NCBI GenBank assembly: GCA_965218425.1
Contig: OZ244621.1
Span: 3,872,001-3,936,000 of the forward strand
DNA: 64,000 nt
Direction of reading: 5' to 3'
Source: an uncultured Candidatus Binatia bacterium
GTDB taxonomy: Bacteria; Desulfobacterota; Binatia; UBA9968; CAXXLF01
In this document: piece after piece, positions 35,812-49,496 of the stretch
Numbering within the stretch: the first letter of the stretch is position 1
Layout: every line of letters begins with the position of its first letter
Notes under the pieces: generated by a model
Seen by the model: the letters and a program-made list of their open reading frames with translations, nothing else
Database searches by the model: none
What the model was told of the DNA's origin: nothing
Position numbers and translations under genes: made by a program

Positions 35812-36918
35812 TGAACTGGATCAAACACATGTGAGACAGATTTAAGCTACAAAGGAGGGGTTTTGTAAGTATAAAGAAAGGACCCCTCCATGAGCTACTT
35901 TGGACTGAACTGGCAATTTAACTGGGCTTGCCGTCATCTCCACACTAACCTCTCGCCCAAAGAGCGCGATCGACTTAGAGCCCTCCTTCTGTGGCAGGAG
36001 ACCAAAGACATAAAGCTTACCTACCGCACTTTTGACCTGAGCCGACCCACTGTTTACCTCCGGCTCCAACGCTTTGATCCCAACGACCTCGGCTCCCTTC
36101 GAGAGCGTTCTCGCAAACCGCACCGGTTCACACAGCCCCAATGGCCCCTGGCCCTCAAGCAGGCAATACTACGCTTAACAGAGCAATATCCCCGCTGGGG
36201 TAAAAACAAACTCGTAGTGCTACTTCAAAACGAAGGCTTTGAGGTCTGTGCTCCTACCGTGGGCCGTATTCTCAGCTCTGTCAGGCAGCGCGGACAACTC
36301 ATAGAGCCAAAACCCCAAGCTATCTCCACAAAAAGACGGCGTAAGCTAAGACCCTACGCTATCGGTAAACCCAAAGACTATCAGCCCCTTTACCCTGGCG
36401 ACCTGGTTCAAATCGACACCCTCGACATCGGTCCCGTGCCAGGCGTGATCCTCAAACAGTTCACTGCCCGCGATGTGGTCTCGCGCTGGGACGTACTCAA
36501 AGTTCATCGTCAAGCTAGCGCCCCCCTAGCCGCCTCGTTCATCGATACCATCAAGGCTCGTATGCCCTTTGCCGTACGTGCCTTTCAGGTCGATGGAGGC
36601 TCAGAGTTGTTCTCTGACTTTGAGACCCACTGCCAACAACATGGCATCCGGTTGTTCGTCGTGGGGCCTAAAAGTCCTAAGCTCAATGGTGCTGTGCAAC
36701 GGGCTAACCGTACTCACACTGAGGAGTTCTATGAGGTCCAACAGTGTGCTTGGACCGTTGAGGCTCTTAACCAACAACTGCTCGAATGGGAACGGACCTA
36801 CAATACGGTACGGCCCCACCAGGCACTTAATTACTTAACTCCCTTGCAATATCTCCAAGACCGAGGCATCGTATCCTCCAAAAATCCCTCCCTGTCTCAT
36901 ATGTACTGATCCACTACG
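35812..36918 (+). mobile_element. IS481-family element (transposase 35890-36909)
   Basis: Imperfect IRs TGAACTGGATCAAACACATGTGAGACAG / CTGTCTCATATGTACTGATCCACTACG; CCGCC direct repeat on both flanks; PGDLVQIDT, QVDGGSE, YNTVRPHQAL. Confidence 0.85.
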
Positions 36919-37034: not shown

Positions 37035-37997
37035 ATGCTATCCCCAAAAGATCTCAGCGGAGTATTGGGAATGATGCCGTCCTTTGCCACTGAAGATGCG
37101 GTGGACATTCGTGCTACCCAAACCATTGCCGTTGACAACCTCAAAGAAGGCGTGGACCGAATTATCAAAGACGGCATTGGTCTCATCGCCACCACTGGCA
37201 CCTATGGCGAATGCTACAACCTACTCTTCGAGGAATTCAAAACCCTCACGGTAGCCACTGTGCAGAGCGTCAAGAAGCGAGTTCCCCTTTTTATTGGTTG
37301 CACGAGCCCCAACCCACGCGAGGTGGTGCAGAAAATGAACTTCGTGAAAGACTCCGGGGCCGATGGAGTCCTTCTGGGCGTGCCGTATTACGAGACCCTC
37401 CCGGTTCCCGATGCCATTCAATTCTACCATGACATCGCAGAACTGTTCCCAACGCTAAATATCTTGATATACCACAACCCGGACAATCATCATTTTACGA
37501 TGCCCGTAGCAGCCTTCAAAGAGCTCACAAAAAACCCCACCATCATCGGCATGAAGGACAGCCACAGGACCACTGCGGCCTTTATGAACCTGCAGCGCAT
37601 CATCAAGGGTAAAATCAGTCACTTCGTCAACCAATCCCAACTCTATCCCTATTACAAAATGGGCGCGGTGGGATGTTGGTCTACGGACGCTTGGATGGGA
37701 CCATGGCCGCTGCTCCACCTCATAAGTCTCCTTGGGCACGGGGACGAGGAACAGGCCCAGCAAGTCCTCGCTGAAATCGTGGGCGAAGGGGCTGGTGGTA
37801 AGCCAAGACCCGGTGAGGGCACCAAACGTCCGCAACAGTATTCCGATTACTGCAAGGTGGGCCCCACCCGGGTTCCGTTCCTCCACTTTCCCGAAGCGCA
37901 AATAGAGAAGGCAAAGAGACAAGCGGCCCACTGGAAGAAATTGTGTGACAAATACCGCCCCCTGGTGGAAGCAGAGAGAGGCCGTCCCGCGGCGTAA
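37035..37997 (+). CDS. DHDPS/NAL-family hydratase-aldolase (NahE/PhdJ-like)
   Basis: TTGTYGEC (GxxGE motif of NahE-like enzymes), GADGVLLGVPYY, IYHNP, Schiff-base GMKDS. Confidence 0.8.
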   Translation: MLSPKDLSGVLGMMPSFATEDAVDIRATQTIAVDNLKEGVDRIIKDGIGLIATTGTYGECYNLLFEEFKTLTVATVQSVKKRVPLFIGCTSPNPREVVQKMNFVKDSGADGVLLGVPYYETLPVPDAIQFYHDIAELFPTLNILIYHNPDNHHFTMPVAAFKELTKNPTIIGMKDSHRTTAAFMNLQRIIKGKISHFVNQSQLYPYYKMGAVGCWSTDAWMGPWPLLHLISLLGHGDEEQAQQVLAEIVGEGAGGKPRPGEGTKRPQQYSDYCKVGPTRVPFLHFPEAQIEKAKRQAAHWKKLCDKYRPLVEAERGRPAA

Positions 37998-38078
37998 ATT
38001 GTACGGGCATCGCGCTCCCCCGTGCCGCTTTTCCGGGTACGGGGGGCGAGTCTGGACTGAGTCCAATAGGAAAGAGAG

Positions 38079-39101
38079 ATGGAAACCACCTTCTTCGGTA
38101 ACGCCATTGGTGAGGCCTATAAGCTCGGCAAACAAGAACAGGAGCGGCGAAAAAACTCGCCGGTGCTTGTGAAGTGGCCGGACATCCAAAGGCAACTCGC
38201 TGATAGCAAACATGTTTACGTGATCGATCCGCGGTTAGGCTTCAACAATAGGACCCACCGGCTGTGGTATGACCGGATACCGCCGGAAAGCGAAGACGGC
38301 CAGGAATGGAAGTACATGGGCCACCGCCACACCGTGGAGGCCGTCATTTATTTTCTCAAAGGTCACGGCCATAGTATCATCGACGGCGTTCGTTACGACT
38401 GGGAAGCGGGTGACCTGCTCTCCGTGCCCATGTTCTCATGGCATCGGCACATCAATGACGGTAAGGAGGAAGTCCTCCGCATCGCATCCACCACCAACCC
38501 TCTTTCCATTTCTCTGGGTCAGGCAGTGTACGAAGACGAGCGGCATCCCGAGTTCTGGGTGTTCGCCCAGGAAGGCGAGGACGCCCAAAAAACCTTGATC
38601 CCGGGCGGAGCCGGCGATGCCGGCACGGTGGATGGATCAACGGATACTGGAGCAGCGAAGCTCTACGCTGAACAGGTGGGCTTCGCCATGAAGGAGGAAA
38701 AACTGCGACGCGCGAGCAAGGTGTTGGTTAAAAAGGACGACGTTAAACCGCAACCCACCGCCATGGGCAACCTGGCCTACGTCGTAGACCCCCGCATCGG
38801 TTTCCACTCCAAGGCACTGGCCGTGGTGGCGGCGGAAATTCCCCCTGGCAAGCGATCGGGAGCCCACCGCCACCTGTACGATGAGATTGATCTCGTGGAA
38901 AAGGGGCAAGGACGGATCGTAGTGAACGATAAGGAGTACGAGTTCAGCGCAGGGGATGTCCTCTCAATCCCAGTCTTCGCCTGGCATCAATACTTCAATA
39001 CCGGCAAAAAGCCGTTGCGGATCGTTGGCATCAGCACCAGACCGGCACTGGAAAACCTGGGTCTGGTTCTAACACACCAGGGGGAGCTGGCGGACCATTA
39101 A
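38079..39101 (+). CDS. Bicupin protein (gentisate-dioxygenase-like fold)
   Basis: GHRHTVEA...WHRHIN and GAHRHLYDE...WHQYFN. Confidence 0.82.
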   Translation: METTFFGNAIGEAYKLGKQEQERRKNSPVLVKWPDIQRQLADSKHVYVIDPRLGFNNRTHRLWYDRIPPESEDGQEWKYMGHRHTVEAVIYFLKGHGHSIIDGVRYDWEAGDLLSVPMFSWHRHINDGKEEVLRIASTTNPLSISLGQAVYEDERHPEFWVFAQEGEDAQKTLIPGGAGDAGTVDGSTDTGAAKLYAEQVGFAMKEEKLRRASKVLVKKDDVKPQPTAMGNLAYVVDPRIGFHSKALAVVAAEIPPGKRSGAHRHLYDEIDLVEKGQGRIVVNDKEYEFSAGDVLSIPVFAWHQYFNTGKKPLRIVGISTRPALENLGLVLTHQGELADH

Positions 39102-39179
39102 ACAGCGCCATCGACAGGAACGGCAATCTACGGTTTCCACCCCCCTTGGACCCGATTGATCCGAGTGCCCCAGCAAACC

Positions 39180-40697
39180 ATGGCTCATCACGAACACGCA
39201 AACCACAAGCACACCCATGACTCGGAACATGACCATGGCGGGGACCACGAGCACCATGGGGACCATGACCACATTGATCTGACCAACGCCACGAAGCTGC
39301 GCAGCATTGGCATCGATATCGGGTCAGCTACGTCCCACTTCGTTGTATCAGACATCTTCGTGGGAAAGCGCGATCCTGTGTTGGCGCAGAAGCCCGAGGT
39401 GCTAAAACGGCAACTGGTCTACCAATCCCCTATCCTGTTTACGCCCTTTAGCGACCGGACCACCATCGATGCAAAAGAGTTGGAACGATTTCTAGTGGAT
39501 CAGTGCGCTTTGGCTAATTTAAATCTTGAAGATATGGACACGGGCGCCTTGATCTGTACAGGGGAGGCAGCCCGCAAAGAGAATGCGGGAGCTATCAGCG
39601 AGCGTCTCTCCATGATGAGTGGGAAGTTTGTATGCGCTACGGCGGGTCATCATCTGGAGGCCGTGCTGGGCGCCTACGGTTCCGGCTCGATCATGCTTAG
39701 CAAGGCTGTGCCGGGGCACGTGGTCTCCCTTGATACGGGCGGTGGGACGGCCAAGCGGACCCTCATGTACGACGGCAAGGTCCTTCATACATCCGCGCTA
39801 AACATCGGATCCCGGCTTATTGCGTGGGACCAGCACGGCAGGGTGAACCACTTGGACCACGCAGGAGCTTTGGTGGCGAGAGAAATTGGCCTGGAACCGA
39901 GATTAGGTGAGAGCCTCAACGAAAGCCATCAACAAGCCATCGCCGAACGAATGGCGGACTGTCTCATTGAGTTTATTGGCTTCGAACCCATGGGCGACCT
40001 TGCTCAGGACCTTTTTTTGACGGAGACCCCTCCTCCACCTCTTTCCTCCCAGTTTTCTCTCACGGTGGTGGGAGGGCTGTCGGAGTACTTCTACGGGCGA
40101 GAGACGTCCCCAAAGGGTGATCTGGGCCTGTGGATAAGCCAGGCCCTGCGCAAGAAGCTCCGCCAACGTATCCCGGAGAGTGCTATTTTAACGCCTGAAA
40201 ATGGAATTCGGGCAACGGTCATTGGAGCCGGGCAGTTCAGCATGCAGGTGAGCGGTGAAACCATCTGGACGGACTCGAACCTAAAGCCGCCGTTGCGCAA
40301 TATTCCGGTTTATACCGTTCCCCTAGACTGGACCGACCTCCAACCCCAATCAGTCCATAGGATTTTAACCAATGTCATGGCGAGGGTGGATCCCCAGGAG
40401 ATCTGTAGTCTTGCCTTTAGCAAAGCCCCTTACTTCGGATACGGCATCGTATACAAGCTCGCCGAAGCCCTTGCCTATTCGCTCCAGCACTTGGAACGGA
40501 AACAAGGTCTTGTGTTTGTGTTCCACGAAAACTTCGGACGTGCGGCGGGAATCACTTTTTCCCGATTCATGCCGGGTCTTCCGGTTCTGTGCGTTGATGA
40601 AATAGATGTGGGAGACCTGGATTACCTGGACATCGGCGAACCTCCTGAAGGAGATGAGTTCCTTCCAGTGGTGGTGAAGAGCCTCGTTTTTTCGTAA
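39180..40697 (+). CDS. eutA: EutA-like ASKHA ATPase (reactivating-factor family) with His-rich N-terminus
   Basis: SIGIDIGSATSH, YQSPILFTPF, DTGALICTGEAARKENA, FVCATAGHHLEA, DTGGGT, IRATVIGAG, LPVVVKSLVF. Confidence 0.88.
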   Translation: MAHHEHANHKHTHDSEHDHGGDHEHHGDHDHIDLTNATKLRSIGIDIGSATSHFVVSDIFVGKRDPVLAQKPEVLKRQLVYQSPILFTPFSDRTTIDAKELERFLVDQCALANLNLEDMDTGALICTGEAARKENAGAISERLSMMSGKFVCATAGHHLEAVLGAYGSGSIMLSKAVPGHVVSLDTGGGTAKRTLMYDGKVLHTSALNIGSRLIAWDQHGRVNHLDHAGALVAREIGLEPRLGESLNESHQQAIAERMADCLIEFIGFEPMGDLAQDLFLTETPPPPLSSQFSLTVVGGLSEYFYGRETSPKGDLGLWISQALRKKLRQRIPESAILTPENGIRATVIGAGQFSMQVSGETIWTDSNLKPPLRNIPVYTVPLDWTDLQPQSVHRILTNVMARVDPQEICSLAFSKAPYFGYGIVYKLAEALAYSLQHLERKQGLVFVFHENFGRAAGITFSRFMPGLPVLCVDEIDVGDLDYLDIGEPPEGDEFLPVVVKSLVFS

Positions 40698-41971: not shown

Positions 41972-42925
41972 CTACACACCCGGCAGGGCGGCAGCCTCGG
42001 GATGCAAGAGAGTATTGAAGTCATACTTCGTAGGTGTGACTCCAAACTGATGAGCGAATGACATCATGGCTTCCAGCGAACGCACGTTGTTATCCACGTT
42101 ATAAGACCAGTAGTTCTCTCCCATGACCGCTCGCTGCTCGTCCATGAGGGCGGCTGCCCACGAAATGGTCAGGACCTCGGGGTCAGACCCGTAGATGCGG
42201 TTGAAGGCAACATCACGTGCCTGGCGGTACGCCTTCAGCAGGGCCACCGGCGCCTCTGGATGCTTGTTCACAAACTCCTGGGTCAACGACACCATGTGGC
42301 TGATGGGGAAGATGCCTGTTGCCTTAAAGTAGTTCTGTTCTTCCGTCTTGTAATCCCGAAAGAGGCGACGCACCCGTGGGTCGCGCCGGCTAACGGAGGG
42401 CAGGACGTTGGGGTCGATTACCGCATCCACCTCACCCTCCACCAACATGTTGTCCAGGGCGGCGTCGGCGGGCCTGGAAACCTTTGGCACGGCCTCGACC
42501 TTGATGCCTGGGGCCCAGCCATTCGCCTCTCGTCCCATCATAAACCAGTTGATCTTGGTGAGATCCACTTTGTAATAATTAAGCAGGGCGCCCCGGGCCC
42601 AGATACCGGCGGTACTGCTGACAAACACCCGCTTGCCCTCCAGGTCTTTTGGAGACTCAATCCCCGAACCGCTGTTCACATAGATATAAGCCAGGCGGAA
42701 TTTTCGGTTCGGGAACGCAGGTATGGATACATAGGGATGATCGCCCTTTGCTTTGGTTTGCATGAGTCCGCCAAAGCTCGCGTCCCATGCATCGATGAAC
42801 TCGGCCCCACGGAAGTTGCTGATCTCCAGGTCGAAGCCCTCAACTTTCACGGTCCCATCGACAAAGGGCCGGTTGGTATCGACCTCAGGTTCACGGAAAC
42901 CAAGTCGTAGCTTGGGGTTAGCCAT
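41972..42925 (-). CDS. 4,5-dihydroxyphthalate decarboxylase-like protein (PBP2 fold)
   Basis: DGTVKVEG, IPAFPNRKFR, PKDLEGKRV, YFKATGIFPISH. Confidence 0.78.
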   Translation of the reverse strand: MANPKLRLGFREPEVDTNRPFVDGTVKVEGFDLEISNFRGAEFIDAWDASFGGLMQTKAKGDHPYVSIPAFPNRKFRLAYIYVNSGSGIESPKDLEGKRVFVSSTAGIWARGALLNYYKVDLTKINWFMMGREANGWAPGIKVEAVPKVSRPADAALDNMLVEGEVDAVIDPNVLPSVSRRDPRVRRLFRDYKTEEQNYFKATGIFPISHMVSLTQEFVNKHPEAPVALLKAYRQARDVAFNRIYGSDPEVLTISWAAALMDEQRAVMGENYWSYNVDNNVRSLEAMMSFAHQFGVTPTKYDFNTLLHPEAAALPGV

Positions 42926-48559: not shown

Positions 48560-49496
48560 TCAGGTCCCAGGCAGGGCAGCCGCCTCAGGGTGGAAAAAAC
48601 TCTCGTAATCGACCCGGTCCGGTGTCACCCCCTGCTGATGGGCAAACTGGGTCATGGCTTCAAGGGCGCGCCGGTTGTTTTCGATGTTGTAGGCCCAATA
48701 GTTCTCTCCCATCAACGCCCGCTGCTGGTCCAGCAAAGCACTTGCCCAAGAGAGCAATAAAATCTGTGGATCCGATCCCTGGATCCGGTCAAAGGCCACG
48801 TTGCGTGCCGTGCGGTAGGCCTTCAGGAGGGCCACGGGTGCGTCAGGGTGCTGGTGGACGGAACTCCCGGGACAACGTCACAATGTGGCTGATGGGGAAG
48901 ATGCCAGTCTCCTTGAAGTAGGTTTGCTCTTCGGTCTTGTAATCACGAAAGAGCCGGCGCACCCGTGGATCCTTCCTGGATATGGAGGGCAACACGTTCG
49001 GTTCAATGATTGCATCCAGCGCCCCCTCCACCAGCAGGGTGTCGCTGTTCCCGCCTTTGGGCCAGTTGTCGATCCGGATGCTTGGGGCTACTGGGGTTTC
49101 CTTGGGGCTCGGTGCAAACCATTGCACACGAGTGAGGTCCACTCCATAGTAGTTCTGCAGGGCGCCTTTCGCCCACATGCAGGCGGTGTTCCCCCAACTG
49201 GAGATGCCCACACGTTTGCCTTCAAGGTCGCGTGGGGATTCGATGCCCGCCGCATCGTTGACAAAGATATAGGACAACCGGAACTTGCGGTTGGAAAAGG
49301 CAGGGATGGAGACGTAGTGAATGCCTTGCACTTTGCCCCGCACAAGCGACCCAAAGCCGGCGTCCCAGGCATCGGTGTCACCCTGGGAGACCATCTCCAA
49401 CTCGAACCCTTCCACCTTGACCGTCCCATCGGTGATGGGCATGTTAATGTCGGTGGTGGCCTCCCGGCAACGGAAGCGGAGCTTTGGATTGGCCAT
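48560..49496 (-). pseudogene. Second dihydroxyphthalate decarboxylase-like gene, +1 frameshift near 48860
   Basis: Paralogue of 41972-42925; removing one C restores EFVHQHPDAPVALLKAYR (compare EFVNKHPEAPVALLKAYR). Confidence 0.82.

Follow-up and report, generated by a model that had tools for sequence, protein, structure and literature searches.

The locus described here raises the question of what a member of the EutA family is doing in a genome in which no ethanolamine ammonia-lyase can be found for it to act upon. The gene lies in a stretch of DNA of 64,000 nucleotides from an uncultured Candidatus Binatia bacterium (hereafter, the window), where it stands directly behind genes for a NahE-like aldolase and a bicupin. 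To our knowledge, EutA has one described job, which is the repair of a B12 enzyme. The protein of the window is a member of the EutA sequence family and very probably not an ethanolamine lyase reactivase. Its link to cupins is well supported by genomics, and we consider it probable, by a modest measure, that it is an ATP-driven maturation or repair factor for a matched subfamily of bicupins, whose metal site it would load or repair.

The host genome is a single contig of 4.46 Mb, 97.3% complete. By profile search, EutB and EutC are absent from it (the controls were positive in E. coli), and tblastn of the genome with E. coli eutB, eutC, eutM, eutN, eutT, eutH, eutJ and eutQ gave 0 matches. The lack of eutB and eutC, which the initial annotation had reported for the window and had proposed to follow up in the genome, thus extends to the whole host. 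No methylmalonyl-CoA mutase family gene was found in the host genome, and a search of it for diol dehydratase was empty, as was the positive control of that search. Among 41 genomes of the order of the host, 18 of which are one genus, the EutA family is present in all 41 and EutB in none.

Membership of the EutA family is seen along the full length of the protein, which matches Pfam PF06277 with 346 bits against a cut-off of 27 (profile positions 2-474 of 475) and is 33.7% identical to E. coli EutA (b2451) over 475 amino acids. Against the NCBIfam EutA equivalog the best score was 284 bits for a cut-off of 598; these cut-offs were dropped as a discriminator, since two eutBC-adjacent controls also fall below them (424, 359). 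Both phosphate motifs named in the initial annotation, DIGSATS and DTGGGT, are in place, together with the adenosine motif (Table 1) and the two-lobed fold of ASKHA proteins. Judging by these three intact nucleotide motifs, the protein would bind and hydrolyse ATP. The predicted structure has a mean predicted local distance difference test (pLDDT) of 87.3, with residues 1-29 under 50, and its closest solved folds are PPX/GppA (Z 18.3, root-mean-square deviation (rmsd) 4.0, 261 residues aligned), FtsA (Z 15.5), the 2-hydroxyacyl-CoA dehydratase activator (Z 14.4) and the diol dehydratase reactivase DdrA (2d0o; Z 11.7, rmsd 4.2, 247 aligned). The actin-like matches also include MreB, Foldseek agrees, and all of these folds, being 12-15% identical, place the protein at the level of the superfamily only. 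EutA is counted among the actin-like families in PMC5597319. A sequence search of the PDB gave a single chance match driven by a His-tag, with no EutA structure present, and the ESM Atlas returned only clusters labelled EutA or cupin.

The tree proposed in the initial annotation sets the window protein apart from canonical EutA. In an unrooted IQ-TREE phylogeny of 35 chosen rows, which left out one degenerate and one frameshifted copy, 13 eutBC-linked sequences (from enterobacteria, Bacillota, Fusobacteriota, haloarchaea and two Chloroflexota genomes) split from 22 others at 100/100. The window protein is among the 22, in a 100/97 branch with other copies linked to bicupins of its own partner's class, and FastTree on 136 rows agrees with this branching. 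When 12 eutBC-linked sequences were compared with 193 others, 49 columns were conserved in both, including a C-terminal PV..KSL motif. The non-eutBC sequences differ at S49, S52, H53, C152, A165 and K192, all six of which are found in the window protein. In eutBC-linked EutA the residues S49/S52/H53/C152/K192 are T/T/Q/V/N; at position 192 the 193 non-eutBC sequences have Lys and eutBC-linked EutA has Asn.

The frequent neighbours of this branch are cupins rather than eutBC. The 102 cupin-like open reading frames (ORFs) of the host genome fall into four classes, for which the names cupA (about 60 members), cupB (5 full-length members, including the window bicupin), cupC and cupG (gentisate-like) were coined in this analysis. 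The host holds nine long EutA-family copies, one of them frameshifted and one with altered motifs, so that the label of orphan given to the window gene was an understatement. Seven of the nine have a co-oriented cupin directly upstream, versus 15 of 271 genes from eight other expanded catabolic families. A cupin adjoins the EutA-like gene at 46 of the 78 loci analysed in genomes and at 32 of the 80 in metagenomes; eutB or eutC is found at 0 of these 158. The loci were those most similar to the window protein out of 686 and 563 confirmed candidates, respectively, and are therefore biased away from canonical EutA. Many of those with no cupin come from a single conserved branch whose members stand alone among housekeeping genes.

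Co-occurrence gives the same picture in samples that include draft genomes, where genes can be hidden. When 151 genomes of the class were sampled evenly, 19 had EutA-like genes and these same 19 had cupA; all are of one order, which amounts to one event. In the order of an Ensifer record (G173), 5 of 301 genomes carry EutA-like genes and the same 5 carry cupA, with a cupin at most about 500 bases from each of the 8 ATPase copies; the central genome was picked as a positive, hence 4 of 300 are unselected. Sixteen of 251 genomes from the phylum of a Dehalococcoidia record (G174) carry the EutA family. All 14 carriers that lack EutB have cupA, and the 2 with an adjoining eutB have none. One further small genome of this phylum has a single partial cupA match and no ATPase, and 8 more have EutB but no EutA. 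The cupin linkage on which the initial annotation had made its proposal depend is conserved across phyla, and harmless cultured carriers of the cupin-linked ATPase are Phyllobacterium zundukense and Ensifer sp.

The two partners also diverge together. The trees of 77 adjacent cupin-ATPase pairs agree with a rho of 0.79 (reached in 0 of 999 permutations; shared ancestry uncorrected), and the cupA-only subset of 71 pairs has a rho of 0.76. Of 41 related genomes, 14 have cupB together with the ATPase branch linked to it and 25 have neither; one is found alone in G033 and the other in G021. The two genes are adjacent in the host (G000) and in G001, G009, G011, G023, G027, G031 and G037. In other carriers, such as G007, G013, G017 and G019, they stand apart, which fits action in trans. 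By an indirect matching, 11 of 59 close ATPase matches lie on a contig of exactly the length of one with a cupB match, where 0.8 would be expected. This match of ATPase branch to cupin subfamily is what the window adds, and the protein would be an ATP-dependent reactivase or maturase with a predicted cupin client; no description of an EutA-cupin pairing was found in the titles and abstracts of the searchable literature.

The partner bicupin has the features of a metal enzyme. Its predicted ligands are H82/H84/E87/H122 and H263/H265/E269/H303, a 3-His-1-Glu set in each barrel, and in 83 homologues H84, E87, H122, H265, E269 and H303 are invariant, with H82 and H263 conserved in at least 90%. 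Among solved folds, those of salicylate and gentisate 1,2-dioxygenases come closest to the predicted structure (pLDDT 87.5), with Z 27.2 and 27.1, rmsd 4.4 and 3.9, and 281 residues aligned. The entries 2phd, 3bu7 and 2d40 give Z 27.2, 27.1 and 26.2 and the next match 22.5, placing the bicupin in the fold of the gentisate family. By sequence the two are distant: identity is 16-22%, and the gentisate 1,2-dioxygenase profile TIGR02272 scores 52.3 bits for a cut-off of 442.1. Gentisate 1,2-dioxygenase has a 3-His iron site that lacks the cupin Glu. Such a site is not present in the bicupin, where E87 and E269 are invariant in the 83 sequences and both barrels carry the Glu, versus Ala or Ser in the solved enzymes. 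The 17 gentisate-like bicupins of the host form a separate class, none of which stands directly before any of the nine eutA-like genes, and in the JGI annotation many relatives of the window bicupin are labelled 'gentisate 1,2-dioxygenase'. The bicupin shares a catabolic context with these dioxygenases. It may take part in the breakdown of aromatic acids, either by cleaving a ring or as a decarboxylase.

The N-terminus of the ATPase hints at metal. The 13 His reported earlier are confirmed at residues 2-31, in a segment that is predicted to be disordered, as in His-tailed metallochaperones, and that is the most His-dense 30-mer among 5777 host reading frames of at least 150 amino acids. His-rich tails, defined as at least 4 His in 30 residues at either end with rough start calls, are found in 79 of 159 non-eutBC copies versus 0 of 10 eutBC-linked ones. 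At the N-terminus of 53 close relatives, 24 have at least 6 His per 30 residues and 25 have fewer than 4.

Complex modelling, which the initial annotation had proposed, was run for the ATPase with the window bicupin. It gave a score of 0.45 (0.52, 0.41 and 0.45 in the individual runs) versus 0.00 for three controls, with at least 62% of contacts shared between runs and a partner pLDDT of at least 79. Of 157 solved complexes, 116 come up to the mark for this score, as do 2 of 215 mismatches; scores at the mark and up to 0.60 include 18 of the 157 solved complexes and both mismatches. The prediction lends weak support to a complex between the two proteins.

Which metal would be handled is suggested by the surroundings of some of these genes. 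In Phyllobacterium zundukense the gene order is cupin, eutA, Ni/Co permease (NiCoT) and nikR, and the order at locus L064 is similar. The host genome has no hyp genes (hypA and hypB included) and no LarA; its hycE matches are probably complex I subunits, because there are no hyp genes. Motif scans of the host genome for urease, carbon monoxide dehydrogenase, nickel superoxide dismutase and NiFe hydrogenase found none, the test being a weak one. Nickel has a precedent in Ni-quercetinase, a cupin with a 3His/1Glu site that, in the accessible text of PMC4416304, is loaded with nickel and has no described helper. This precedent makes nickel plausible.

In the host genome, nikR is followed directly by a ZnuA-type metal ATP-binding cassette transporter (1801778-1805105; L272:5779-9103), at 12 kb from another cupin-eutA pair. 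The ATPase of this transporter has a His-rich N-terminus.

The simplest change that would fit these data is a swap of client, from a B12 lyase to a cupin. EutA is described as spending ATP to free its client of a damaged cofactor (PMC5821096), and glycerol dehydratase reactivase as remodelling its client via an Hsp70-like domain (PMC7674605). By analogy, the ATPase would dock on its matched bicupin as EutA does on its client, and the nucleotide cycle would open the metal site of the bicupin. The His/acid tail may hold or hand over a divalent metal, for which nickel is a candidate, and this metal would then enter the site or replace a wrong or oxidised one. The ATPase would work catalytically and in trans, because there are 9 ATPases for 102 cupin-like genes and some copies stand alone. 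The product of the bicupin may feed the NahE-like aldolase. In the initial annotation a metal-loading or reactivating factor for cupins had been suggested: the link to cupins stands, by the conserved linkage, the tree and the absence of eutBC, and loading or reactivation is the part that is proposed. A more specific version, in which the cupin-linked branches serve as dedicated machinery for ATP-driven insertion of metal into cupins, with nickel as cargo and each branch serving its own bicupin subfamily, is possible, if rather doubtful.

Several observations weigh against a maturation factor for cupins, or against nickel as its cargo. The Ni-quercetinase precedent means that a helper is not obligatory. 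Among about 230 loci, many of which have flanks of only 1.5 kb, a nickel transporter adjoins the genes in no more than 2 genomes, and a NicO-family permease was not found in the host genome. Given that 25 of the 53 close relatives have fewer than 4 His, the tail is not essential, and the score of the predicted complex lies in a range where wrong predictions outnumber right ones. The conserved stand-alone branch is never beside a cupin, and part of the sister branch of the ATPase adjoins genes for CADD-like di-iron proteins instead of cupins; di-iron enzymes could be a second class of client. Co-divergence and co-occurrence, with shared ancestry uncorrected, would also be expected if the genes moved together as one cassette, or encoded an enzyme with two subunits.

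The last of these possibilities, in which the ASKHA protein phosphorylates a substrate and the reaction is then completed at the metal site of the cupin, has analogues in hydantoinase/oxoprolinase and acetone carboxylase. The tight one-to-one co-divergence of the 77 pairs and the matching at branch level fit it, as does the weak support for a complex, and phosphoryl transfer could be served by the Lys that each of the 193 non-eutBC sequences has beside its phosphate-2 motif. Nonetheless, two subunits of one enzyme sit poorly with 9 ATPases for 102 cupin-like genes and with conserved stand-alone copies, the homology to EutA spans the whole chain including the C-terminal domain, EutA itself acting on a protein, and the His tails would be left unexplained, so that this reading is held to be unlikely. 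The few-to-many ratio, together with the mutual dependence of ATPase and cupins, would fit an ATPase that produces, or activates, a small cofactor needed by the cupins, with no lasting contact, in the way that UbiX serves UbiD enzymes; the closest solved folds are indeed small-molecule ASKHA enzymes such as PPX/GppA. However, these matches speak at the level of the superfamily, the cupins have ordinary His/Glu metal sites, and a diffusible cofactor would need no branch-matched ATPases, which leaves a cofactor maker quite unlikely.

Given that gene neighbourhood by itself cannot show contact, the ATPase could also catalyse a step of the pathway, as a small-molecule kinase might, or be a passenger of the operon with no effect on the cupin protein. 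The genes lie in catabolic clusters that also contain Rieske, UbiD, amidohydrolase and transporter genes; in these, however, the other neighbours vary freely and the cupin stays, and the ATPase is almost never missing where the cupin family occurs (1 exception in 15, 0 in 5 and 0 in 19), making such a role improbable. A reactivase that still serves a cobalamin enzyme, be it ethanolamine ammonia-lyase or another adenosylcobalamin enzyme, would account for the full-length match to the EutA family. The host genome keeps a cobalamin adenosyltransferase and three ORFs with a B12-binding domain, and in one of five genomes tested (G177) eutB lies about 33 kb from the cupin-linked copies, points that also count against a change of client. 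Nonetheless, the missing EutB, EutC and methylmalonyl-CoA mutase family genes, the nine copies, and a separate branch with different motif residues make a B12 client highly improbable in the host.

A maturation factor for cupins would combine traits of known systems. With E. coli EutA the window ATPase shares homology over the whole length, the ASKHA motifs and the 49 common conserved columns; it differs in having a cupin partner and a place in a separate branch, with no eutBC or microcompartment genes in its genome, and the window-type ATPase has a His-rich tail and up to nine copies per genome. HypB, UreG and CobW are P-loop GTPases and, with UreE and SlyD, His-rich metallochaperones. The resemblance to these lies in a disordered, species-variable tail rich in His and acidic residues, in a predicted nucleotide-driven action and in few copies for the metal enzymes served. 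Unlike them, the window protein has an ASKHA fold with no Pfam or NCBIfam match to the G3E metallochaperone GTPases (HypB/UreG/CobW), its host lacks hypA and hypB, and its clients would be cupins. Activators of the HgdC/BcrAD type have two conserved Cys for a bridging 4Fe-4S cluster. The predicted structure matches their folds (1hux, 4eht), but by sequence only one Cys (152) is conserved across the branch. DdrAB and GdrAB are likewise actin/Hsp70-like ATPases that act on a client enzyme (PMC7674605), and 2d0o is a structural match; theirs is a two-subunit system with B12 clients and a subunit swap, whereas in the present case neither a small subunit nor a B12 client was seen.

The large sister branch of EutA, which is routinely labelled 'ethanolamine utilisation' in databases, has another class of partner. 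If the ATPase matures cupins, many database annotations would be corrected, and bicupins made alone in E. coli might be inactive, which would explain why these bicupins, with 59 of one class in the host genome, have no characterised member. We know of no other dedicated ATP-driven helper for the cupin superfamily, so that this would be the first. If the cargo is nickel, each genome would hold dozens of client cupins that together make up a large and so far unrecognised group of nickel enzymes in aromatic-acid breakdown, and the nickel regulator of a genome in which no hydrogenase, urease or lactate racemase was found would be accounted for.

Table 1. Position of the genes of the unit, and of the tail and motifs of the ATPase, within the window
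Feature	Position	Strand	Remarks
NahE/PhdJ-like hydratase-aldolase	37035-37997	+	320 aa; Pfam PF00701 (DHDPS) 95.6 bits
Bicupin, cupB subfamily	38079-39101	+	340 aa; two Pfam Cupin_2 matches
EutA-family ASKHA ATPase, cupin-linked branch	39180-40697	+	505 aa from ATG; PF06277 346 bits
Disordered N-terminal tail of the ATPase (predicted)	39180-39287	+	13 His + 9 Asp/Glu in 36 residues
Phosphate-1 motif DIGSATSH of the ATPase	39315-39338	+	residue 46; S49/S52/H53 signature of the eutBC-less branch
Phosphate-2 motif DTGGGTAK of the ATPase	39732-39755	+	residue 185; includes Lys192
Adenosine motif GGLSE of the ATPase	40071-40085	+	residue 298

The three genes are co-oriented, as first described, with gaps of 81 bp between aldolase and bicupin and 78 bp between bicupin and ATPase (Table 1), and AGGAGG precedes the ATG of the aldolase. 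A longer start of the ATPase gene would be the TTG at 39156; the orthologue in the related genome G001 begins at the same MAHHEH. Scans for promoters and terminators were at chance level (3 versus 2.1 and 6 versus 4.5). From two metatranscriptome runs (shares 0.08 and 0.05) three identical contigs were obtained, 161-196 bases long, and one of them spans the cupin-eutA junction; DNA carry-over is possible, the contigs are not proof of a transcript, and the RNA evidence was set aside as unusable.

The trio is real, and its first gene is local context, not part of the conserved core. The aldolase occupies the same position in G001 and in locus L103, and as a core part it was rejected, with NahE-like genes above 100 bits in 4 of 158 related loci (L013, L014, L044 and L103). 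Its best relatives in the PDB are PhdJ (6dan, E 1.2e-35) and NahE (6dao, E 1.2e-34), versus 2e-16 for the best DapA, and the Schiff-base Lys174 aligns with that of the solved relatives, placing it in the NahE/PhdJ subgroup, to which it is only moderately similar (about 125 bits). Four or five NahE-like paralogues are present in the host genome, one beside an eutA-like unit. With the aldolase, a 4,5-dihydroxyphthalate-decarboxylase-like gene and a nearby gentisate-like cupin, the gene content suggests aromatic-acid breakdown. The decarboxylase-like gene is at 41972-42925 on the minus strand (E 3.5e-38 to PDB 9jp7), and a second one, at 48560-49496 on the same strand, is divided over two frames. 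The window contains 8 cupin ORFs, the number originally counted, and the neighbour downstream of the unit is a convergent amidohydrolase gene, 36 bp away. By local profiles, the host genome has about 87 Rieske-like, 72 UbiD-like, 96 amidohydrolase-like and 102 cupin-like ORFs.

The other EutA-family copies differ in their settings. To the stand-alone branch belong L002 (host 961788-963419) and some 30 loci related to it; these EutA-like proteins have a His tail at the C-terminus, and TPR, ferredoxin, histidine-biosynthesis-like and MoxR-like genes are their neighbours. One cupA-eutA pair, L001 (host 1786860-1789548), is fixed directly behind the ATP synthase genes, as in more than 20 related loci. 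The copy L008/L011 (host 1738881-1740400) is broken by a frameshift near its 5' end, and its upstream part also starts His-rich. In the alphaproteobacterial cassettes L060, L064 and L219/L221, two eutA-like genes of different branches alternate with cupins. CADD/heme-oxygenase-like di-iron genes and dihydroxyphthalate-decarboxylase-like genes are neighbours in the sister-branch loci L250, L252, L254, L090, L071 and L069, and likewise in the cupB loci L190, L195 and L198. The altered-motif copy, L009 (host 3025476-3027029), has HIGSATT and DLGADG, forms a long branch in the tree and stands behind two single cupins and ahead of a 719-amino-acid ORF. A near-identical copy of the integrase-core transposase, of the insertion-sequence type, that lies just upstream of the aldolase-bicupin-ATPase unit (window 35890-36909) sits downstream of this altered-motif unit.

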